A stretch of DNA of 64,000 nucleotides from Escherichia coli (GCF_017348835.2 NZ_CP071375.1), one strand, 5' to 3'. Positions 626 to 61,746 are shown, counted from the first letter of the stretch. Numbers and translations are program-made. The notes: a model not told the origin generated them from the letters alone.

Positions 626-2767
626 ATGAACATCATTGCCATTATGGGACCGCATGGCGTCTTTTATAAAGATGAGCCCATCAAAGAACTGGAGTCGGCG
701 CTGGTGGCGCAAGGCTTTCAGATTATCTGGCCACAAAACAGCGTTGATTTGCTGAAGTTTATCGAACATAACCCACGAATTTGCGGCGTGATTTTTGACT
801 GGGATGAGTACAGTCTCGATTTATGTAGCGATATCAATCAGCTTAATGAATATCTCCCGCTTTATGCCTTCATCAACACCCACTCGACGATGGATGTCAG
901 CGTGCAGGATATGCGGATGGCGCTCTGGTTTTTTGAATATGCGCTGGGGCAGGCGGAAGATATCGCTATTCGTATGCGTCAGTACACCAACGAATATCTT
1001 GATAACATTACCCCACCGTTCACGAAAGCCTTGTTTACCTACGTCAAAGAGCGGAAGTACACCTTTTGTACGCCGGGTCATATGGGCGGCACCGCATATC
1101 AAAAAAGCCCGGTTGGCTGTCTGTTTTATGATTTTTTCGGCGGGAATACCCTTAAGGCTGATGTCTCTATTTCGGTCACCGAGCTTGGTTCGTTGCTCGA
1201 CCACACCGGGCCACATCTGGAAGCGGAAGAGTACATCGCGCGGACTTTTGGCGCGGAACAGAGTTATATCGTTACCAACGGAACATCGACGTCGAACAAA
1301 ATTGTGGGTATGTACGCCGCGCCATCCGGCAGCACGCTGTTGATCGACCGCAATTGTCATAAATCGCTGGCGCATCTGTTGATGATGAACGATGTAGTGC
1401 CAGTCTGGCTGAAACCGACGCGTAATGCGTTGGGGATTCTTGGTGGGATCCCGCGCCGTGAATTTACTCGCGACAGCATCGAAGAGAAAGTCGCTGCCAC
1501 CACGCAGGCACAATGGCCGGTTCATGCGGTGATCACCAACTCCACCTATGATGGCTTGCTCTACAACACCGACTGGATCAAACAGACGCTGGATGTCCCC
1601 TCGATCCACTTCGATTCCGCCTGGGTGCCGTACACCCATTTTCATCCGATCTACCAGGGTAAAAGTGGTATGAGCGGCGAGCGTGTTGCGGGACAAGTGA
1701 TCTTCGAAACGCAATCGACCCACAAAATGCTGGCGGCGTTATCGCAGGCTTCGCTGATCCACATTAAAGGCGAGTATGACGAAGAGGCCTTTAACGAAGC
1801 CTTTATGATGCATACCACCACCTCGCCCAGTTATCCCATTGTTGCTTCGGTTGAGACGGCGGCGGCGATGCTGCGTGGTAATCCGGGCAAACGGCTGATT
1901 AATCGTTCAGTAGAACGAGCTCTGCATTTTCGCAAAGAGGTCCAGCGGTTGCGGGAAGAGTCTGACGGTTGGTTTTTCGATATCTGGCAACCGCCGCAGG
2001 TGGATGAAGCCGAATGCTGGCCCGTTGCGCCTGGCGAACAGTGGCACGGCTTTAACGATGCGGATGCCGATCATATGTTTCTCGATCCGGTTAAAGTCAC
2101 TATTTTGACACCGGGGATGGACGAACAGGGCAATATGAGTGAGGAGGGGATCCCGGCGGCGCTGGTGGCAAAATTCCTCGACGAACGTGGGATCGTAGTA
2201 GAGAAAACCGGCCCTTATAACCTGCTGTTTCTCTTTAGTATTGGCATTGATAAAACCAAAGCAATGGGATTATTGCGTGGGCTGACGGAATTTAAGCGCT
2301 CTTACGATCTCAACCTGCGGATCAAAAATATGCTACCCGATCTCTATGCTGAAGATCCCGATTTCTACCTCAATATGCGTATTCAGGATCTGGCGCAAGG
2401 GATCCATAAGCTGATTCGTAAACACGATCTTCCCGGTTTGATGTTGCGGGCATTCGATACTTTGCCGGAAATGATCATGACGCCACATCAGGCATGGCAG
2501 AGACAGATTAAAGGTGAAGTAGAAACCATTGCGCTGGAACAACTGGTCGGTAGAGTATCGGCAAATATGATCCTGCCTTATCCACCGGGCGTACCGCTGT
2601 TGATGCCTGGAGAAATGCTGACCAAAGAGAGCCGCACAGTACTCGATTTTCTACTGATGCTTTGTTCCGTAGGGCAACATTACCCCGGTTTTGAAACGGA
2701 TATTCACGGCGCGAAACAGGACGAAGACGGCGTTTACCGCGTACGAGTCCTAAAAATGGCGGGATAA
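626..2767 (+). CDS. ldcC: Lysine decarboxylase, constitutive
   Basis: 713 aa ORF with RBS aggagg upstream; fold-type I PLP decarboxylase sequence; position after accA. Confidence 0.9.
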   Translation: MNIIAIMGPHGVFYKDEPIKELESALVAQGFQIIWPQNSVDLLKFIEHNPRICGVIFDWDEYSLDLCSDINQLNEYLPLYAFINTHSTMDVSVQDMRMALWFFEYALGQAEDIAIRMRQYTNEYLDNITPPFTKALFTYVKERKYTFCTPGHMGGTAYQKSPVGCLFYDFFGGNTLKADVSISVTELGSLLDHTGPHLEAEEYIARTFGAEQSYIVTNGTSTSNKIVGMYAAPSGSTLLIDRNCHKSLAHLLMMNDVVPVWLKPTRNALGILGGIPRREFTRDSIEEKVAATTQAQWPVHAVITNSTYDGLLYNTDWIKQTLDVPSIHFDSAWVPYTHFHPIYQGKSGMSGERVAGQVIFETQSTHKMLAALSQASLIHIKGEYDEEAFNEAFMMHTTTSPSYPIVASVETAAAMLRGNPGKRLINRSVERALHFRKEVQRLREESDGWFFDIWQPPQVDEAECWPVAPGEQWHGFNDADADHMFLDPVKVTILTPGMDEQGNMSEEGIPAALVAKFLDERGIVVEKTGPYNLLFLFSIGIDKTKAMGLLRGLTEFKRSYDLNLRIKNMLPDLYAEDPDFYLNMRIQDLAQGIHKLIRKHDLPGLMLRAFDTLPEMIMTPHQAWQRQIKGEVETIALEQLVGRVSANMILPYPPGVPLLMPGEMLTKESRTVLDFLLMLCSVGQHYPGFETDIHGAKQDEDGVYRVRVLKMAG

Positions 2768-2823
2768 CTTGCCAGAGCGGCTTCCGGGCGAGTAACGTGC
2801 TGTTAACAAATAAAGGAGACGTT

Positions 2824-3213
2824 ATGCTGGGTTTAAAACAGGTTCACCATATTGCGATTATTGCGACGGATTATGCGGTGAGCAAAGCTTTCTACTGCGA
2901 TATTCTTGGTTTCACGCTGCAAAGCGAAGTCTATCGCGAAGCGCGCGACTCGTGGAAAGGGGATTTGGCGCTTAATGGGCAATATGTGATTGAGCTTTTC
3001 TCATTTCCGTTCCCGCCGGAGCGCCCCAGCCGACCGGAAGCTTGCGGCCTGCGTCATCTGGCTTTTAGCGTTGATGATATCGATGCGGCAGTGGCGCACC
3101 TTGAAAGCCATAACGTGAAGTGTGAAGCCATCCGTGTCGATCCATACACGCAAAAACGCTTCACGTTCTTTAACGATCCGGACGGGCTGCCGTTGGAACT
3201 GTATGAGCAGTAA
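2824..3213 (+). CDS. yaeR: VOC / glyoxalase-family protein YaeR
   Basis: ORF 2797..3213; likely start at internal Met 2824 (MLGLKQVHH); conserved synteny. Confidence 0.75.
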   Translation: MLGLKQVHHIAIIATDYAVSKAFYCDILGFTLQSEVYREARDSWKGDLALNGQYVIELFSFPFPPERPSRPEACGLRHLAFSVDDIDAAVAHLESHNVKCEAIRVDPYTQKRFTFFNDPDGLPLELYEQ

Positions 3214-3277
3214 GGCTTGTCATCGCCGCATTTGCCCGGTAACGTGCCGGGCATTGCTACTGTAAAATCGCACCATC

Positions 3278-4573
3278 ATGACACTCACGCTCAATAGACA
3301 ACTTCTCACCTCACGCCAGATTCTGGTGGCCTTTAGCGGCGGGCTTGACTCCACCGTTCTGCTGCATCAGTTGGTGCAGTGGCGGGCGGAAAATCCGGGC
3401 GTCACTCTGCGCGCTATTCATGTGCATCACGGTTTAAGTGCCAATGCCGATGCCTGGGTTAGGCATTGCGAGAACATCTGCCAACAGTGGCAGGTGCCGC
3501 TGGTGGTCGAGCGCGTGCAACTTGCGCAAGAAGGACTGGGCATTGAGGCCCAGGCGCGGCAGGCGCGTTATCAGGCATTTGCCCGCACCTTGTTGCCCGG
3601 TGAAGTGCTGGTCACCGCGCAACATCTCGACGATCAATGTGAAACTTTTCTGCTGGCGCTAAAACGCGGTAGCGGCCCTGCCGGGCTTTCGGCTATGGCG
3701 GAAGTTTCGGAGTTTGCCGGAACACGGCTTATCCGCCCGTTGCTTGCCCGCACGCGGGGGGAACTGGCGCAGTGGGCATTGGCGCATGGTTTACGCTGGA
3801 TTGAAGACGAAAGTAATCAGGACGACTCATACGATCGTAACTTTCTGCGCCTGCGCGTAGTGCCGTTATTGCAGCAGCGTTGGCCGCATTTTGCCGAAGC
3901 AACAGCCCGCAGCGCCGCACTTTGCGCTGAACAAGAGAGCCTGTTGGATGAACTGCTGGCGGATGATTTAGCACACTGTCAATCGCCGCAGAGGACGCTG
4001 CAGATTGCGCCAATGCTGGCGATGAGTGATGCCCGCCGCGCGGCGATTATCCGCCGCTGGCTTGCAGGGCAGAATGCACCGATGCCTTCCCGCGACGCGT
4101 TGGGGCGGATCTGGCAGGAAGTGGCGCTGGCGCGGGAAGATGCCTCCCCCTGTTTACGTTTGGGCGCGTTTGAAATCCGACGCTATCAGTCGCAACTGTG
4201 GTGGATTAAATCCGTCACCGGGCAAAGCGAAAACATTGTGCCGTGGCAGACGTGGCTTCAACCGCTGGAATTACCGGCGGGGCTGGGAAGTGTACAGCTT
4301 AATGCGGGAGGCGATATTCGCCCTCCGCGTGCAGACGAAGCGGTCAGCGTGCGTTTCAAAGCGCCAGGATTGCTGCATATTGTCGGGCGTAACGGCGGAC
4401 GTAAGCTAAAGAAAATCTGGCAAGAGCTGGGCGTGCCGCCGTGGCTACGTGACACCACGCCACTGCTGTTTTATGGCGAAACGCTGATTGCGGCGGCAGG
4501 GGTATTTGTGACGCAAGAAGGTGTGGCTGAAGGTGAGAATGGCATAAGTTTTGTCTGGCAGCGAAACGCTTAG
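3278..4573 (+). CDS. tilS: tRNA(Ile)-lysidine synthetase
   Basis: 431 aa ORF; PP-loop motif SGGLDS near the N-terminus. Confidence 0.9.
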
Positions 4574-5238: not shown

Positions 5239-5784
5239 ATGGCGCTTAAAGCGACAATTTATAAAGCGACGGTTAATGTGGCCGATCTCGACCGCAACCA
5301 GTTTCTCGATGCCTCTCTGACGCTGGCGCGCCACCCTTCAGAAACCCAGGAGCGTATGATGCTGCGCTTGCTGGCGTGGCTGAAATATGCTGATGAACGT
5401 CTGCAATTTACCCGTGGTTTGTGTGCCGATGATGAGCCGGAAGCGTGGCTGCGTAACGATCACCTGGGCATTGATTTGTGGATTGAGCTGGGGCTGCCGG
5501 ATGAGCGGCGGATTAAGAAAGCCTGCACCCAGGCCGCAGAAGTGGCGCTGTTTACCTATAATAGTCGGGCGGCGCAAATCTGGTGGCAGCAAAATCAGAG
5601 CAAATGTGTGCAGTTTGCCAATCTTTCCGTCTGGTATCTGGACGATGAACAACTGGCGAAAGTAAGCGCCTTTGCCGATCGTACCATGACGCTGCAGGCA
5701 ACGATTCAGGATGGCGTGATCTGGTTATCGGATGATAAGAATAATCTGGAAGTGAACTTAACCGCCTGGCAACAACCTTCATGA
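5239..5784 (+). CDS. yaeQ: YaeQ family protein
   Basis: 181 aa ORF; synteny. Confidence 0.8.
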
Positions 5785-6203
5785 TTGTGATTTCCCGACA
5801 TGTTGCTATTCCCGATGGTGAGCTTGAGATCACCGCCATTCGTGCGCAGGGCGCGGGCGGGCAGCATGTTAATAAGACCTCAACGGCTATTCATCTGCGT
5901 TTTGACATTCGGGCGTCCAGCCTGCCAGAGTATTACAAAGAGCGTCTGCTCGCCGCCAGCCATCATTTGATCAGCAGTGATGGCGTGATTGTCATTAAGG
6001 CACAGGAATACCGCAGTCAGGAACTGAACCGCGAAGCAGCTCTGGCCCGGCTGGTGGCTGTGATTAAAGAATTAACAACAGAACAAAAAGCCCGACGACC
6101 CACGCGGCCCACCCGTGCATCGAAAGAGCGCAGGCTGGCATCGAAAGCACAAAAATCAAGCGTGAAGGCGATGCGCGGCAAAGTGCGCAGCGGTCGGGAA
6201 TAA
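5781..6203 (+). CDS. arfB: Alternative ribosome-rescue factor / peptidyl-tRNA hydrolase ArfB
   Basis: 140 aa ORF with GGQ motif ([10 protein letters not shown]) and basic C-terminal tail. Confidence 0.85.
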
Positions 6204-6216
6204 AAAGAAGGAATGG

Positions 6217-6927
6217 ATGGTGAAAAAAGCGATAGTGACAGCGATGGCTGTAATCAGCCTCTTTACTCTGATGGGTTGTAATAATCGGGCCGAAGTCGAT
6301 ACGCTTTCTCCGGCGCAGGCAGCCGAACTGAAACCGATGCCGCAAAGTTGGCGCGGCGTGCTGCCGTGTGCCGATTGCGAAGGAATCGAAACCTCTCTGT
6401 TCCTCGAAAAAGACGGAACATGGGTGATGAATGAGCGTTATCTCGGTGCTCGTGAAGAACCTTCCTCCTTCGCTTCCTACGGTACATGGGCGCGAACCGC
6501 TGACAAGCTGGTATTAACCGACAGCAAAGGTGAAAAGTCATATTATCGGGCGAAAGGCGATGCGCTGGAGATGCTCGATCGTGAAGGTAAACCGATTGAA
6601 TCGCAGTTCAACTATACGCTGGAAGCGGCACAATCCAGTTTACCCATGACGCCGATGACTCTGCGGGGCATGTATTTTTATATGGCTGATGCGGCGACCT
6701 TCACTGATTGCGCGACCGGAAAACGTTTCATGGTAGCGAATAACGCAGAGCTGGAGCGTGGCTACCTGGCTGCGCGCGGGCACAGTGAAAAACCGGTGTT
6801 ACTGTCAGTAGAAGGTCACTTTACGCTTGAGGCTAATCCGGATACCGGTGCGCCGACCAAAGTATTAGCGCCCGATACGGCGGGTAAATTTTATCCGAAC
6901 CAGGATTGCAGTAGTTTGGGGCAGTAA
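6217..6927 (+). CDS. nlpE: Outer-membrane lipoprotein NlpE (Cpx activation)
   Basis: Lipoprotein signal with lipobox LMGC; CxxC motif CADCEG. Confidence 0.85.
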   Translation: MVKKAIVTAMAVISLFTLMGCNNRAEVDTLSPAQAAELKPMPQSWRGVLPCADCEGIETSLFLEKDGTWVMNERYLGAREEPSSFASYGTWARTADKLVLTDSKGEKSYYRAKGDALEMLDREGKPIESQFNYTLEAAQSSLPMTPMTLRGMYFYMADAATFTDCATGKRFMVANNAELERGYLAARGHSEKPVLLSVEGHFTLEANPDTGAPTKVLAPDTAGKFYPNQDCSSLGQ

Positions 6928-6939
6928 ACCTGCTTAAGG

Positions 6940-53832: not shown

Positions 53833-55572
53833 TCAACTCAACGCCCCCATAATCTTCAACTCCAGCTCATCCGGCACTTCGTTATACGACAGCACATGCA
53901 GCCCCGGCGCAAACAACCTTGCGTAGCGCGCTAGCAAAGGGCGCAGCTGCGGCGGCACCAGCAGCACCGGGTCTTTCCCCGCCGCTTTCATCTGCTCCTT
54001 CACCTGCGGCATCGTGCTCTGGAACTGGTTGAGCATATTCGGGTCGACCGGCACGCTGTCGAGCATCACTTTGCCGCCCTGTTGCGCCTGATTCACCACG
54101 TTGGTCAGCAGATTTTCCAGCTCATTATTCAGCGTATACACCGTCAGCTCCTGCTTGCGAACGAAAGGATGAGTAATGCTGCGCCGCAGCGCCAGGCGCA
54201 CATCGGCCGCCAGCAGAATATGATCTTTGGTCACCGCGCTACTGGCGACCAGCACGGTGGCGATGGTGACGATGTCGCGCAGGGAAACGCCTTCGGTCAG
54301 CAGCGCACGGTACACTTTCAGCAACTGGCTGTAATTCAGCGCCGCGCTCAAATCCTCCGCCAGGCGCGGTGCCATTGACGACAAACGGTTATGCAACTGC
54401 GTGATGTCATCATAGTTAAACAAATCAGGAATATAACTGCGCACAATCTTATTCACATGGGTGGCAATCACGCTGGCGCTGTCGATCACCTGATACCCCA
54501 TATTCAGCGCCTTCGCTTTCTGCGCAGGCTGGATCCAGGTGACTGGCATCCCATACGCCGGGTCGTTCCCCAGCACGCCGTCTATCTCGCCGTAGGTTTC
54601 GCTGGAGGGCAGGGCCATCAGTTTATCCGCCGGAATATCCGCTTCATCAGCCTTAATGCCGTTGATGAAAATGGCGTACTGGCTGGGCTTGAGGCGGAAA
54701 TTTTCCCTAATGCGGATCTCCGGCAGCAGCACGCCGTTGCCGTCGGATATCACCTGCCGCACGCCGCGGATCCGCTGGGTGAGCGGGTTACCCTGTGCTT
54801 TATCGACCAGCGCTACTAGCTTGTAGCCAAGGCTTAAGCTGATGGGTTCGATCAGCGGAATGGTTTCCCAACTGACCTGTTGCTCGCTGGTTTCAGTGAT
54901 GGTGCGGGTCAGCGTTTCGAGGCTTTTCTCCTCCGCCTCTGCCGCCTGCGGCTGTTTGCTCATTCGCCAGCCGGTAAAGCCAAGCAGGGCGCTGAACATC
55001 AGGAACGGCAGGTGCGGCATCCCCGGCACCACTGCCAGCACAAACATAATTCCGGTAGCGGTGTAGAGCACCGACGGGCTTGCCAGCAGTTGGTTACGCA
55101 CGTCATGGGCGATATCGCCGTTGTCGCTGACGCGGGTGACGATAATCGCCGCTGCGGTGGAGAGCAGCAGGGAAGGGATCTGCGCCACCAGCCCATCGCC
55201 GATGGTCATCAGCACATATTGCTGGAAGGCGGCATCGGCGCTCAGGTTGTATTTGAAGATCCTGATACAGACGCCGCCGATCAGGTTGATCGCCAGAATC
55301 ATCATCCCGGCGATGGCATCCCCGCGCACAAACTTCGATGCCCCGTCCATCGCGCCGTAGAAATCGGCTTCGCTGGCGACATCTTTACGCCGGGTTTGCG
55401 CCTGCGCCTGGTTGATCAATCCGGCGTTAAGGTCGGCGTCAATCGCCATCTGCTTGCCGGGCATCGCGTCAAGGGTAAAGCGGGCAGAAACCTCGGAAAT
55501 ACGCTCGGCCCCTTTGGTGACGACAATAAAGTTGATTGTCAACAGCGTCAGTAAATCCGAGCGTGAAAGCAT
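53833..55572 (-). pseudogene. lfhA: FlhA-like flagellar export protein fragment (Flag-2 remnant)
   Basis: 579 aa ORF homologous to FlhA but lacking the N-terminal ~120 aa. Confidence 0.7.
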
Positions 55573-55574
55573 TA

Positions 55575-56302
55575 TCGCCGCGCTGCACGGGCAGTCGATT
55601 TTTAACGGTGGTGGGCTGTCGCCGTTAAATAAAATCAGCCCGTCTCATCCGCCAAAACCTGCCACCGTGGCGGTGCCGGAAGAGACGGAGAAAAAAGCGC
55701 GTGATGTGAATGAGAAAACGGCGCTGCTGAAGAAGAAATCCGCCACCGAGCTTGGCGAGTTGGCAACCAGTATCAACACCATTGCCCGTGATGCGCATAT
55801 GGAAGCGAATCTGGAGATGGAGATTGTTCCCCAGGGATTACGCGTGCTGATTAAAGACGACCAGAATCGCAATATGTTCGAACGCGGCAGCGCGAAGATT
55901 ATGCCGTTCTTTAAAACGCTGCTGGTGGAGCTAGCGCCAGTGTTCGACTCGCTCGATAACAAAATTATTATTACCGGGCATACCGATGCGATGGCCTACA
56001 AAAACAATATCTACAACAACTGGAACCTTTCGGGCGATCGCGCGCTTTCAGCTCGTCGGGTGCTGGAAGAGGCCGGAATGCCGGAAGATAAAGTGATGCA
56101 GGTAAGCGCAATGGCGGACCAGATGCTGCTGGATGCCAAAAATCCGCAAAGCGCGGGCAATCGGCGTATTGAGATTATGGTGCTGACCAAAAGTGCGTCC
56201 GATACGCTGTATCAATACTTTGGTCAGCATGGGGATAAAGTGGTGCAGCCACTGGTGCAAAAGCTGGATAAGCAGCAGGTGCTTTCGCAGCGAACGCGTT
56301 AA
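55575..56302 (+). pseudogene. lafU: MotB-like fragment (Flag-2 remnant)
   Basis: OmpA-like C-terminal domain (NWNLSGDRALSARRV...NRRIEI); the 5' part of the ORF is antisense lfhA. Confidence 0.6.
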
Positions 56303-56372: not shown

Positions 56373-57428
56373 ATGCGTAAAATCATTCATGTGGATATGG
56401 ACTGCTTTTTCGCAGCGGTGGAGATGCGCGACAATCCCGCCCTGCGCGATATCCCTATTGCTATTGGCGGCAGCCGCGAACGTCGAGGGGTGATCAGCAC
56501 CGCCAATTATCCCGCGCGTAAATTTGGCGTACGTAGCGCTATGCCGACAGGGATGGCGCTCAAATTATGCCCACATCTCACCTTGCTTCCGGGGCGCTTT
56601 GACGCCTACAAAGAAGCCTCAAATCATATCCGTGAAATCTTCTCGCGCTACACCTCGCGCATTGAACCGTTGTCACTGGATGAAGCCTATCTCGATGTCA
56701 CCGATAGCGTCCATTGCCACGGTTCTGCGACCCTCATCGCCCAGGAAATCCGCCAGACGATTTTCAGCGAGCTGCAACTGACGGCGTCTGCGGGCGTGGC
56801 ACCAGTAAAGTTTCTCGCCAAAATCGCCTCCGACATGAATAAACCCAACGGCCAGTTTGTGATTACGCCGGCAGAAGTTCCGGCATTTTTACAAACCTTA
56901 CCACTGGCAAAAATCCCCGGCGTCGGCAAAGTCTCGGCGGCAAAACTGGAAGCGATGGGGCTGCGGACCTGCGGTGATGTACAAAAGTGTGATCTGGTGA
57001 TGCTGCTTAAACGCTTTGGCAAATTTGGCCGCATTTTGTGGGAGCGTAGTCAGGGGATTGACGAACGCGATGTTAACAGCGAACGGTTGCGAAAATCCGT
57101 CGGCGTGGAACGCACGATGGCGGAAGATATTCATCACTGGTCTGAATGTGAAGCGATTATCGAGCGGCTGTATCCGGAACTTGAACGCCGTCTGGCAAAG
57201 GTAAAACCTGATTTACTGATTGCTCGCCAGGGGGTGAAATTAAAGTTCGACGATTTTCAGCAAACCACTCAGGAGCACGTCTGGCCGCGGCTGAATAAAG
57301 CTGACTTAATCGCCACCGCGCGTAAAACCTGGGATGAACGCCGCGGCGGGCGCGGTGTGCGACTGGTGGGGCTGCATGTGACGTTGCTTGACCCGCAAAT
57401 GGAAAGACAACTGGTGCTGGGATTATGA
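56373..57428 (+). CDS. dinB: DNA polymerase IV
   Basis: 351 aa; [18 protein letters not shown]-family signature. Confidence 0.9.
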
Positions 57429-57877
57429 ATAACATACAAATAAGAAACTATCAGCCTGGCGATTTTCAGCAACTATGCGCTATTTTCATTAGAGCGGTTA
57501 TGATGACCGCCAGTCAGCATTATTCACCACAACAAATTGCCGCCTGGGCGCAGATTGACGAATCTCGCTGGAAGGAGAAACTCGCGAAATCACAAGTGCG
57601 GGTTGCAGTCATTAATGCACAACCGGTTGGTTTTATTTCCCGCATTGAACATTATATCGATATGTTATTTGTTGACCCTGAATACACCCGCCGTGGGGTT
57701 GCCAGCGCTTTGTTAAAACCTTGGATTAAGTCTGAATCCGAACTTACGGTGGACGCAAGCATAACCGCAAAACCCTTTTTTGAACGTTATGGTTTTCAGA
57801 CAGTTAAGCAGCAGCGCGTTGAATGCCGGGGAGCGTGGTTTACTAATTTTTCTATGCGATATAAACCGCAACATTAA
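57425..57877 (+). CDS. yafP: GNAT acetyltransferase YafP
   Basis: 150 aa; start overlaps the dinB stop (ATGA). Confidence 0.8.
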
Positions 57878-58183
57878 ATCCAGCTTGCAATGAAAATAAC
57901 GCCCGCCTGGTATGTGCGCGTTTTCTTATTCCACAAACTGCAAGGAGGTAAATCATGACAAATCCTTTATCAATGACTCTTTGCAGACCTTTCCAGGATT
58001 AATTCTTTTTTTCTTGCCCTGGATTCGTCTGCCATTTCCTGATTTTTAATATTTATATACTCTAAATAATTCGAGTTGCAGGAAGGTGACAAGCGAGTGA
58101 ATCGCCAGGAGCTTACTAAAGTAAGTGACTGGGGTGAACGAACGCAGTCGCAGTACATGCAACTTGAAGTATGACGAGTATAA

Positions 58184-58450
58184 ATGGAATGGTACATGGG
58201 CAAATATATTCGTCCCTTATCCGATGCGGTATTTACCATCGCATCTGATGACCTGTGGATCGAGAGTTTAGCGATCCAACAATTACACACCACGGCAAAT
58301 TTACCCAACATGCAGCGCGTAGTGGGGATGCCAGATTTACACCCCGGACGCGGCTACCCGATTGGCGCAGCGTTCTTCTCTGTTGGTCGTTTTTACCCGA
58401 CAAGACGTCGCGGTAACAGTGCTGGAAACAGAAACAGGTCGTTACTCTGA
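58184..58450 (+). pseudogene. ykfJ: RtcB-like fragment
   Basis: 88 aa ORF resembling an RtcB fragment; fused out of frame to prfH. Confidence 0.5.
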
Positions 58451-58786
58451 CACCCTGCGTTCAGCGCTGGTTTCTCTGAATGGCGACAACGCATGGGCAT
58501 TAAGCGAAAGCTGGTATGGCACTATTCAGTGGATTTGTCGGAGTCCGTATCGCCCACATCATGGGCGTAAAAACTGGTTTCTGGGCATTGGGCGTTTTAC
58601 TGCTGATGAGCAGGAACAATCCGACGCGGTCCGTTATGAGACGCTGCGTTCGTCGGGGCCGGGCGGTCAACATGTCAATAAAACCGATTCGGCGGTGCGC
58701 GCCACGCATCTGGCTACCTGGATTAGCGTGAAGGTTCAGTCAGAGCGCAGCCAGCATGCCAACAAGCGGCTGGCACGATTGCTGAT
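58397..58786 (+). pseudogene. prfH: Peptide chain release factor homolog PrfH, 5' part, interrupted by an IS element
   Basis: GGQ motif [17 protein letters not shown]; reading frame continues at 60097. Confidence 0.7.
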
Positions 58787-58828
58787 TGAACCGCCCCGGG
58801 TTTCCTGGAGAGTGTTTTATCTGTGAAC

Positions 58829-59716
58829 TCAGGCTGCCAGATCATTATTTCCGATGGAAGCATAATAAGCTTTTTCTGCTTCTGCCGGAGGAATATGGCC
58901 CAGCCTTTCCAGCAATCGTCGATTGTTATACCAGTCCACCCACGTTAGTGTGGCCAGTTCCACTTCTGTCCGGTTTTTCCAGCTCTTACGGTGTATTACC
59001 TCCGCTTTGTAAAGACCATTGATGCTCTCCGCCATCGCGTTGTCATACGAGTCGCCAGTACTCCCTGTTGATGCCAGTAATCCGGCTTCCTTAAGCCGCT
59101 GCGTGTAGGCCAGCGATACATACTGAGAACCTTTATCACTGTGATGGATTGTGCCGGACGGCCGACGGGCCCACAACGCCTGCTCCAGTGCATCCAGCAC
59201 GAATGTTGTTTCCATGGATGATGAGACCTGCCATCCCACGATGTATCCGGCGAACACATCAATGATGAACGCCACATAAACGAAGCCCTGCCATGTGCTT
59301 ACCCAGGTAAAATCAGCCACCCACAACTGGTCTGGACGTTCTGCCACGAACTGACGGTTTACGCGGTCGCATGCGGCAACGGCTTTCCGGCTGACGGTAG
59401 TGCGGACCTTTTTACCCCGGAGAACACCGGCAAGTCCCATAACTGCCATGAGACGTGCCACAGTGCATCTGGCCACTCTGATACCTTCCCGTAACAACTG
59501 ACGCCAGACTTTACGCACACCGTATACCTGGTGATTTTCATCGTATACGCGCTGTATCTCTTTCTTCAGCCAGTCATCGTGCTGCGCACGGGCACTGCGT
59601 TTATCCGGATGATGTCGCTGTTGCTGACAATGGTAATACGTTGACGGGGCAATATGCAGTTCGCTGCATACCGGTCCGACCCCGTACTGCTCACGCAGCT
59701 TATCCAGCAGTGGCAT
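58829..59716 (-). CDS. IS3-family transposase OrfB (DDE integrase domain)
   Basis: 295 aa rve-domain ORF; probably expressed as an OrfAB fusion by -1 frameshifting. Confidence 0.85.
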   Translation of the reverse strand: MPLLDKLREQYGVGPVCSELHIAPSTYYHCQQQRHHPDKRSARAQHDDWLKKEIQRVYDENHQVYGVRKVWRQLLREGIRVARCTVARLMAVMGLAGVLRGKKVRTTVSRKAVAACDRVNRQFVAERPDQLWVADFTWVSTWQGFVYVAFIIDVFAGYIVGWQVSSSMETTFVLDALEQALWARRPSGTIHHSDKGSQYVSLAYTQRLKEAGLLASTGSTGDSYDNAMAESINGLYKAEVIHRKSWKNRTEVELATLTWVDWYNNRRLLERLGHIPPAEAEKAYYASIGNNDLAA

Positions 59717-60042
59717 TATTTTTTCCAGAGGCGGTCGAACTCCGCCTTCGCAAAATAAGCGGAAGCCTGGCGAAGGATATCGTTACTGCGGCGCAGTTCA
59801 CGATTTTCACGTTCCAGCTCTTTCAGACGCTGACGTTCAGCGGTGGTGAGTCCACCATCACCACTCCCGGTATCCCGCTCATGCTGGCGAACCCAGACAC
59901 GCAGAGTCTCCGGCGTACAGCCAATCTTTGGGGCAATGGAACAAATTGCCGCCCACTGTGAGTCATATTCATCCTGACTTTCCAGAACCATACGAATCGC
60001 CCGCTGACGGACTTCGGGGGAAAAACGAGTATTTTTAGTCAT
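59716..60042 (-). CDS. IS3-family transposase OrfA (HTH)
   Basis: 108 aa, [22 protein letters not shown]...; leucine-zipper-like C-terminus. Confidence 0.85.
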
Positions 60043-60096
60043 CCTGTTTACCTCTTTCTCAGGGAGTTTAGTCTCCAGGATTTCCGGGGCGGTTCA

Positions 60097-60232
60097 GATT
60101 GCCTGGAAGCTGGAGCAACAGCAACAGGAAAATAGCGCAGTGCTGAAATCGCAGCGGCGAATGTTCCATCACCAGATTGAACGTGGCAACCCGCGACGAA
60201 CGTTTACAGGGATGGCTTTTATCGAAGGATAA
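60097..60232 (+). pseudogene. prfH: PrfH 3' part (after the IS insertion)
   Basis: Translates to [43 protein letters not shown], continuing from LARLLI before the IS. Confidence 0.7.
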
Positions 60233-60239
60233 TGAAGGA

Positions 60240-60285
60240 TGAAACTGCCGGAAGGCGATTAAACGCCATCCGGCAGCAAATCAAA
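60240..60285. terminator. Bidirectional terminator between prfH and pepD
   Basis: Palindrome ctgccggaaggcg...cgccatccggcag. Confidence 0.5.
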
Positions 60286-60288
60286 TAA

Positions 60289-61746
60289 TTACTTCGCTGG
60301 AATTTCTTTCAGCAGTTCAGTCAGCAGTGTCCAGTAATGACCTACGCTTTCGATGTGAACTTGCTCATCCGGAGAGTGTGGACCGGTGATTGTTGGCCCG
60401 ATAGAAACCATGTCCATTTCCGGATACGGTTTTTTGAACAGACCACATTCCAGGCCCGCGTGGATAATCTGGATGTTCGGCGTCTTGTTGAACAGACGCT
60501 GATAGGTTTCACGTACCAGATGCATCACCGGAGAGTTAGCGTCCGGCTGCCAGCCAGGATATGCGCCTTTCGCTTCGGTTTTCGCGCCAGCCAGTTTACC
60601 CAGCGAATCCAGCATGCTCACCACGTAGTCTTTACCGCTGTCGATCAGAGAACGGATCAGGCAGTGAATTTCTACATTATTGTCAGTCATGGTCACCACA
60701 CCGACGTTCAGGGAGGTTTCGACCACACCTTTTGCCACGTCGGAATTGCGGATAACACCGTTCGGGGTGGCGTTCAGCAGACGAATAAAGGTATCGCGAG
60801 ATTTCGCAATCAGGGCAGCTTTATCGTTCGCTACAGAGTCCAGCAACAAGGCCAGATTTTTCTCTTTCTCTGCCAGCTCGTTTTTCAGGATCTCCTGATA
60901 GGTATTCACCAGAGATTTCAGGGCGTCGACTTTATCAGCTGCGACAGCAATGGTCGCAAAGGCTTCACGCGGGATGGCGTTACGCAGTGTGCCGCCGTTG
61001 AAATCAATAAGACGCAGATCCAGTTCTTCTGCATGACCCGCCAGGAAGCGCACCAGCAGTTTGTTGGCATTACCCAGGCCAACGTGGATTTCACCGCCGG
61101 AGTGACCGCCTTTCAGACCTTTTAAGGTTAACTTGAAGGTTTCAAAACCAGCTGGAACCGCTTCACGATCTAAATGCAGGTTGGAGGTGAAGTCGATACC
61201 CCCCGCACAACCCATGTAGATTTCACCTTCTTCTTCGGAGTCGGTGTTAATCAGAATATCAGCCTGCAACCAGTTGCTCTGTAAGCCGAACGCACCGTCC
61301 ATACCGGCTTCTTCGGTCATGGTCAGCAGCACTTCCAGCGGACCGTGAACCACGTTTTCGTCAGCCAGAACCGCCAGCGCAGACGCCATACCAATGCCGT
61401 TATCCGCACCCAGCGTGGTGCCGCGCGCTTTAACCCATTCGCCATCAATATAAGGCTGGATAGGATCTTTCGTGAAGTCATGCACGGTGTCGTTATTTTT
61501 CTGCGGCACCATATCGAGGTGGGCCTGTAAGACGACCGGTTTACGATTTTCCATACCTGCGGTAGCAGGTTTACGAATCAGGATATTACCTACCTGATCG
61601 CGTTCGACATGGAAACCTTTCTCTTTTGCCCAACCAACAATGTATTCAGCGAGTTGCTCTTCATGATAGGACGGGTGAGGAATAGAACAGATTTTGGCAA
61701 AAATATCCCACAGCGGCTGTGGAGATAATTGAGACAGTTCAGACAC
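60289..61746 (-). CDS. pepD: Cytosol non-specific dipeptidase (aminoacyl-histidine dipeptidase)
   Basis: 485 aa M20-family ORF. Confidence 0.9.
   Translation of the reverse strand: MSELSQLSPQPLWDIFAKICSIPHPSYHEEQLAEYIVGWAKEKGFHVERDQVGNILIRKPATAGMENRKPVVLQAHLDMVPQKNNDTVHDFTKDPIQPYIDGEWVKARGTTLGADNGIGMASALAVLADENVVHGPLEVLLTMTEEAGMDGAFGLQSNWLQADILINTDSEEEGEIYMGCAGGIDFTSNLHLDREAVPAGFETFKLTLKGLKGGHSGGEIHVGLGNANKLLVRFLAGHAEELDLRLIDFNGGTLRNAIPREAFATIAVAADKVDALKSLVNTYQEILKNELAEKEKNLALLLDSVANDKAALIAKSRDTFIRLLNATPNGVIRNSDVAKGVVETSLNVGVVTMTDNNVEIHCLIRSLIDSGKDYVVSMLDSLGKLAGAKTEAKGAYPGWQPDANSPVMHLVRETYQRLFNKTPNIQIIHAGLECGLFKKPYPEMDMVSIGPTITGPHSPDEQVHIESVGHYWTLLTELLKEIPAK

Follow-up and report, generated by a model that had tools for sequence, protein, structure and literature searches.

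The element that splits prfH is best explained as a copy of the IS629/IS1203 group that is intact, probably remains active and transposed into a chromosomal prfH already pseudogenized by a deletion across rtcB2 and prfH, a reading to which we assign a probability of about 0.96. It lies in a stretch of Escherichia coli DNA of 64,000 nucleotides, here called the window, and its features are collected in Table 1. The element is probably active, a judgment made because it is intact and has near-identical relatives in multiple copies. The insertion itself is already known, as RefSeq annotates it in two related genomes. It is an ordinary insertion of a well-known insertion sequence, and an earlier note on this DNA, made from the sequence, had read it correctly.

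Table 1. Features of the interrupted rtcB2-prfH remnant and of the inserted element (window coordinates)
Feature	Position	Strand	Remarks
rtcB2 5' stub (68 codons left of 379), joined to prfH	58196-58399	+	blastn against FWSEC0005; RefSeq pseudogene
prfH pseudogene, upstream part	58396-58786	+	from about codon 31; GGQ motif; ends ...NKRLARLLI
GAT, left copy of the target site duplication, 3 bp	58784-58786	.	read directly; empty site has a single GAT in 13 genomes
Complete IS629/IS1203-group insertion sequence (IS3 family), 1310 bp	58787-60096	-	transposase genes antisense to prfH
IRR, downstream of orfB	58787-58811	+	TGAACCGCCCCGGGTTTCCTGGAGA read inward; 22 of 25 positions equal to IRL
orfB, 295 aa from ATG, -1 frame, DDE catalytic domain	58829-59716	-	Pfam HTH_21 and rve
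ALIL pseudoknot region, predicted -1 frameshift stimulator, across the orfA/orfB overlap	59645-59761	-	Rfam RF01497
orfA, 108 aa, predicted helix-turn-helix DNA-binding protein	59716-60042	-	Pfam HTH_Tnp_1; TAA stop 59716-59718
A6 run, putative -1 slippery site	59719-59724	-	final two orfA codons (AAA AAA), before TAA
IRL, upstream of orfA	60072-60096	-	TGAACCGCCCCGGAAATCCTGGAGA on the minus strand
GAT, right copy of the target site duplication, 3 bp	60097-60099	.	read directly; empty-site comparison
prfH, downstream part	60097-60232	+	AWKLEQQQQ...MAFIEG, stop 60230-60232

Structure and coding capacity of the element

Read directly from the sequence, the element is exactly 1310 bp long, begins with TGAACCGCCCCGG and ends with CCGGGGCGGTTCA; its limits and those of the two GAT triplets beside it agree base for base with the positions that the earlier note had given. 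Members of the IS3 family have imperfect inverted repeats of the TG...CA form and a total length of about 1.2-1.55 kb. The termini here read TGAACC...GGTTCA, the length falls within that range, and a repeat search recovered the imperfect inverted repeats that had been described, as arms of 25 nt paired at 22 of 25 positions (88% complementary). The 13-mer TGAACCGCCCCGG occurs at both ends of the element and nowhere else in the 64-kb window, with 0.13 occurrences expected by chance.

Removing the element and one GAT in silico restores a continuous prfH frame through to MAFIEG*. The empty site reconstructed in this way (800 bp, 400 bp from each side with one GAT) is found at 100% identity in 13 complete E. 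coli genomes, counting matches that form a single alignment piece; in one of them, Santai, the site reads ...CGATTGCTGATTGCCTGGAAG... and is shown also as ...GCACGATTGCTGATTGCCTGGAAG... Because the uninterrupted allele of these 13 genomes has one GAT, the GAT pair is, judged by this comparison, a true target site duplication of 3 bp, as had been proposed. That the repeats might prove not to be a duplication relative to an uninterrupted allele was also looked at, and this did not occur. Target duplications of IS629 span 3-4 bp (PMC3271280), and a 3-bp GAT duplication is of the short kind (3-4 bp) seen in the IS3 family.

The two reading frames have the arrangement usual for frameshifting elements of this kind, as the earlier note had held: orfA (108 aa) and orfB (295 aa) overlap in ATAATG, and orfB is read in frame -1 with respect to orfA, which is the two-frame organization of the IS3 family. 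An ALIL pseudoknot is present as well. In the RNA the overlap region reads CUC UGG AAA AAA UAA UGC, with the AUG of orfB overlapping the stop codon of orfA. Pfam places HTH_Tnp_1 in OrfA and HTH_21, rve and rve_3 in OrfB, and the predicted fused OrfAB of 404 aa matches the NCBIfam IS3 equivalog NF033516 across the whole profile (positions 1-369 of 369), scoring 362 bits where 160 is the cut-off. By these profiles the protein combines the N-terminal helix-turn-helix and C-terminal rve of an IS3-family DDE transposase, and together with the ALIL match they bear out the family assignment made earlier; placement in another family, which would have spoken against it, did not arise. OrfB contains a candidate DDE triad in ADFT (motif at 134), HSDKG (192) and AESINGLYK (229), with a candidate K located 7 residues past the E of the triad.

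The predicted programmed -1 frameshift of the IS3-family type is indicated by two sequence signals, the A6 run and the pseudoknot. The Rfam model ALIL (RF01497) is matched at model positions 1-117 of 117 with E = 4.5e-32 and 120.3 bits, above the gathering score of 50, and RefSeq (PGAP) labels the same coding sequence in the strains F2_81 and PE164 'IS3 family transposase, programmed frameshift' and also places an 'AL1L pseudoknot' feature on it in both. With a G ahead of it, the A6 run does not form a canonical X_XXZ_ZZN heptamer; we infer the exact position of the slip to be at this run. The frameshift products of IS629 were reportedly the subject of an experimental study by Chen and Hu in 2006. 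In IS3411 and in no fewer than 27 further insertion sequences, ALIL (apical loop-internal loop) was defined as the structure that stimulates -1 frameshifting (PMC5009743), and the full-length Rfam match at 120 bits gives the likeness of the element to IS3411, whose ALIL signal is credited in PMC5009743 to Mazauric et al., 2008.

Promoter-like sites were absent from 58700-60300 in a simple sigma-70 consensus scan, and the two terminator-like sites in that interval are no excess over chance expectation. Weak promoters are usual among IS3-family elements. The absence of a sigma-70-like site fits such promoters, and expression of the element is not thereby indicated.

Affiliation within the IS629 group

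Homologous copies are widespread: of 5426 complete E. coli genomes, 4261 contain them. Most of these copies are 95-99% identical to the window element, and a copy at least 99% identical is present in only 198 records. Eight other copies were aligned, and all are 1310 bp long and colinear with the window element without indels, the length expected within one isoform group. Counted in differing positions, the window copy is 7 away from the one that the Stx phage BP-4795 (O84:H4) carries under the label IS629, 21 from a copy in the Stx2a phage Stx2_13E027, 54 from an O157:H7 phage copy annotated IS629 and likewise 54 from a copy on the Shigella sonnei plasmid pSS_046, and 73 from a copy in the Stx2a phage Stx2_131990. 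Among the aligned IS629-group copies there are at least four sub-types with mutual differences of 47-80 positions (about 4-6%), all 1310 bp in length.

The IS629 copy of BP-4795 (E. coli O84:H4, AJ556162) has the same 1310 bp and identical ends at 99.5% nucleotide identity; its OrfB is identical to that of the window, its OrfA differs at 2 residues, and its insertion site is different. The IS1203 type (E. coli O111:H-, and the predominant 'IS629' of O157:H7) shares with the window element the length, the terminal 13 bp and the organization of orfA, orfB and ALIL, and differs from it by 54 substitutions (4.1%; 95.9% nucleotide identity), with 12 of 403 residues changed in OrfA plus OrfB (identity about 97%). 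The equation of the two names is visible in the sequences themselves, in that the O157:H7 phage copy annotated IS629 is base for base the O111 copy that PGAP names 'IS3-like element IS1203 family'; across copies annotated IS629 in O157:H7 phages, identity to the window element is 95.8-95.9%. The differences between the window element and IS1203 are concentrated at element positions 520-1070, within orfB, and this mosaic in mid-orfB suggests recombination among sub-types. For the IS629 of S. sonnei we take X51586 to be the reference entry. Judged from the one pSS_046 copy, the S. sonnei element is 1310 bp long, has no indels, the same architecture and 95.9% identity, and its 54 substitutions are scattered along the entire element, including position 14 of IRL, where it has GGGAATCC in place of GGAAATCC.

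The isoform convention of ISfinder asks for nucleotide identity of at least 90%, and transposase identity of at least 95%, to a named member. The values found here are 99.5% to the BP-4795 copy, 95.9% to the O157 phage copy and 95.9% to the pSS_046 copy, with about 97% for OrfA and OrfB against IS1203. PGAP names the transposase of the window type only 'IS3 family transposase' (in F2_81 and PE164), not IS1203, and gives 'IS3-like element IS1203 family transposase' to the type 4.1% away from the window copy. With the label generic for one type and IS1203 for the other, RefSeq annotation gives no decisive name. By these alignments, the element can be called IS629 in the sense of the isoform group, and the exact name rests on the labels of depositors and PGAP. 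The window copy is by the same measure neither the O157 type nor the Shigella prototype, the latter represented by the single pSS_046 copy. The description of the element as IS629-like and 1310 bp long is therefore supported by the 99.5% identity to the 'IS629' of BP-4795 but needs the qualification that it is a distinct sub-type, 54 positions from both IS1203 and the pSS_046 copy.

These relationships can be set beside the published picture. IS629 of S. sonnei was originally described by Matsutani and Ohtsubo, 1990, as cited in PMC3271280; that paper treats IS1203 and IS3411 as isoforms of IS629 and recognizes at least three IS629 sub-types differing by 55-60 bp. The differences among the sequences compared here fit that picture of sub-types (PMC3271280), and, matched by description, the BP-4795 copy is likely the O26:H11-like 'sub-type III' of Rump et al., 2011 (PMC3271280).

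State of the target locus

The gene into which the element is inserted is a remnant. In the O111 strain FWSEC0005, which we used as the intact reference operon, rtcB2 encodes 379 aa and prfH 204 aa. In a blastn comparison with this operon, the window keeps the first 204 bp of rtcB2, lacks the next 1023 bp and continues from prfH nucleotide 92, with a 4-nt overlap at the deletion junction. Neither a full-length rtcB2 (379 aa) nor a full-length prfH (204 aa), the parts of a functional RtcB2-PrfH operon, is present at the target locus. The rtcB2 stub matches the Pfam RtcB model below its cut-off (23 bits vs 27), and RefSeq marks both fragments as pseudogenes in F2_81, with the entry 'prfH, missing N-terminus and C-terminus'.

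The identical deletion junction is present in 2687 of the 5426 complete genomes, the remaining genomes matching the rtcB2 side only. Santai, whose empty site is 100% identical, also carries the junction, annotated as two pseudogenes. Because this junction is shared by relatives whose flanks are 100% identical and whose site is empty, the deletion is older than the insertion, and the target is, as judged from these junctions, a K-12-type truncated rtcB2'-'prfH pseudogene that existed before the insertion sequence arrived. The splitting of the prfH frame by the element, which the earlier note had described, is confirmed, with the correction that prfH was already 5'-truncated and joined to an rtcB2 stub through the 1023-bp deletion. 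The truncated operon of the K-12 strain BW25113 gave no protection against colicin E3 (PMC9223846).

Several observations concern the surrounding sequence. The intergenic region between yafP and rtcB2' (58055-58178) matches the Rfam Vibrio RNA V_AS5 with 43 bits, below the gathering score of 96, and 58119-58140 is the ERIC2 primer sequence with one mismatch. We take this primer sequence to identify 58055-58178 as an ERIC (enterobacterial repetitive intergenic consensus) repeat, and a role of the V_AS5 match as a regulatory RNA of rtcB2 was rejected on that ground. Farther upstream, dinB (56373-57428) directly overlaps yafP (57425-57877) in the window, and the yafN-yafO toxin-antitoxin pair, which in K-12 presumably sits between these two genes, is absent from that position in the window, F2_81, PE164, Santai and FWSEC0005. 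Upstream of dinB, at about 53833-56302 (1647-4116 of the F2_81 extract), lies what is seen in F2_81 to be a remnant of a lateral-flagella (Flag-2) cluster, with an flhA-like pseudogene lacking its N-terminus beside lafU and, further out in F2_81, a HicAB toxin-antitoxin pair.

Distribution and age of the insertion

A 2510-bp query spanning both junctions was searched against the 5426 complete E. coli genomes, and full coverage at one site was obtained only in F2_81 and FWSEC0005. The insertion is shared by only two of the genomes: F2_81, which has it whole, and PE164, which has the left junction and the insertion sequence only. Both are pig isolates, F2_81 from Australia and PE164 from China. 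The query pieces found in FWSEC0005 are just neighbours, with an IS1203 copy past pepD lying beside an intact rtcB2-prfH. The window has 4 mismatches to F2_81 in 11.8 kb and 1 to PE164 in 6.9 kb, and therefore represents a third strain, closely related to these two.

PE164 (extract 5601-6939) has the same left junction and insertion sequence, but where the window continues to the right with GAT and the remainder of prfH, PE164 reads GAC... and goes on to prophage tail genes. This arrangement is best explained as a later IS-mediated inversion or recombination of the same ancestral insertion. PE164 also carries a copy 100% identical to the element at another site, and F2_81, PE164 and the O103:H2 strain 129 each have 99.9% identical copies at 26-36 places on the chromosome (26-32 in F2_81 and PE164). 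The genome authors reported 23 'IS1203 (and IS1203-like)' copies on the F2_18C chromosome (PMC6985150). F2_18C and F2_81, the RefSeq name, appear to be the same strain.

A recent and lineage-specific insertion is indicated by the perfect target site duplication, by sister copies that are identical or nearly so, by how rarely the insertion is met and by the empty sites, 100% identical, of relatives. The suggestion that it is recent and a strain marker finds support in its restriction to 2 of 5426 genomes and in the emptiness of the site in relatives whose flanks are 100% identical.

Discussion

IS3-family elements move along a copy-out-paste-in route via a circular intermediate (bioRxiv 10.1101/2023.06.07.543989), and by analogy the history of this insertion could be reconstructed as follows. 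Translation of orfA would yield the 108-aa DNA-binding protein, and a fraction of ribosomes would slip by -1 at the A6 run before the stop codon, helped by the ALIL pseudoknot, to produce the 404-aa OrfAB DDE transposase. OrfAB would then act on the TG...CA inverted repeats to generate a circular copy, which would integrate by staggered cuts 3 bp apart and so create the GAT duplication. The integration site lies in the 3' half of prfH, between dinB-yafP and pepD.

How far the copy has kept its ability to move is one point on which a different view could be taken. If the element were a decayed, immobile relic, the lack of a sigma-70-like promoter in the consensus scan and the non-canonical heptamer, with G ahead of the A6 slippery run, would be expected signs of decay. 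Both frames are nevertheless full length, free of stops or indels relative to the eight other copies, the element retains intact inverted repeats and a match to the ALIL model from end to end, and the target duplication is perfect. The identical copy elsewhere in PE164 and the 99.9% copies at 26-36 places per chromosome moreover indicate ongoing transposition of the sub-type, and we regard a relic as very improbable. Still less credible is a coincidental pair of GATs around an element that arrived through homologous recombination between insertion sequences or in a larger rearrangement. A match of 3 bp does arise by chance 1 time in 64, and the different right flank in PE164 shows that IS-mediated rearrangement has taken place at this same copy; the flanks of the window, however, are contiguous at 100% identity in 13 genomes with exactly one GAT at the junction, and the order dinB-yafP-rtcB'-prfH' on one side and 'prfH-pepD-gpt on the other is the normal chromosomal order. 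We rejected a recombination origin because the empty-site comparison has the signature of a simple insertion.

The consequences for the host depend on what was interrupted. The element splits the RF-1 domain frame just past ...NKRLARLLI and removes the last 44 residues, which on its own might suggest that a working prfH was inactivated and with it the RtcB2-PrfH defense against colicin E3, with a resulting phenotype. This is very hard to reconcile with the target, in which the start and first approximately 30 codons of prfH are absent and rtcB2 is reduced to 68 codons; the deletion responsible, being present in so many genomes, including the empty-site relatives, is the older event, both fragments are RefSeq pseudogenes, and the truncated operon of BW25113 was without protective effect (PMC9223846). 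We therefore rejected the knock-out of a functional prfH in view of the pre-existing 1023-bp deletion and prefer the insertion of an intact copy into a pseudogene. Since the deletion predates the insertion sequence, the insertion disrupted nothing functional; the RtcB2-PrfH ribosome-repair module, out of function beforehand, is expected to be unaffected, and no phenotype is expected from an insertion into a gene that was already a pseudogene.

A broader reading concerns the element itself. Possibly the window type forms an IS629 sub-lineage of its own, now expanding in a pig-associated E. coli lineage (F2_81 and PE164), where it would have spread to 26-32 places per chromosome and be actively reshaping the chromosome, the altered right flank of this copy in PE164 being an example; we put this proposal forward tentatively and at somewhat below even odds. 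It is raised because PGAP leaves this type unnamed and because it stands 54 positions (4.1%) from the IS1203 and S. sonnei copies. The clustering in orfB of its differences from IS1203 would fit recombination between sub-types.

For E. coli, the insertion provides a clean, recent and rare lineage marker, whose use is limited mostly to strain typing. It is also an example of how IS629-group elements accumulate in dispensable DNA, and the right flank in PE164, if best explained as above, illustrates how the same copy may go on to seed further rearrangement of the genome.
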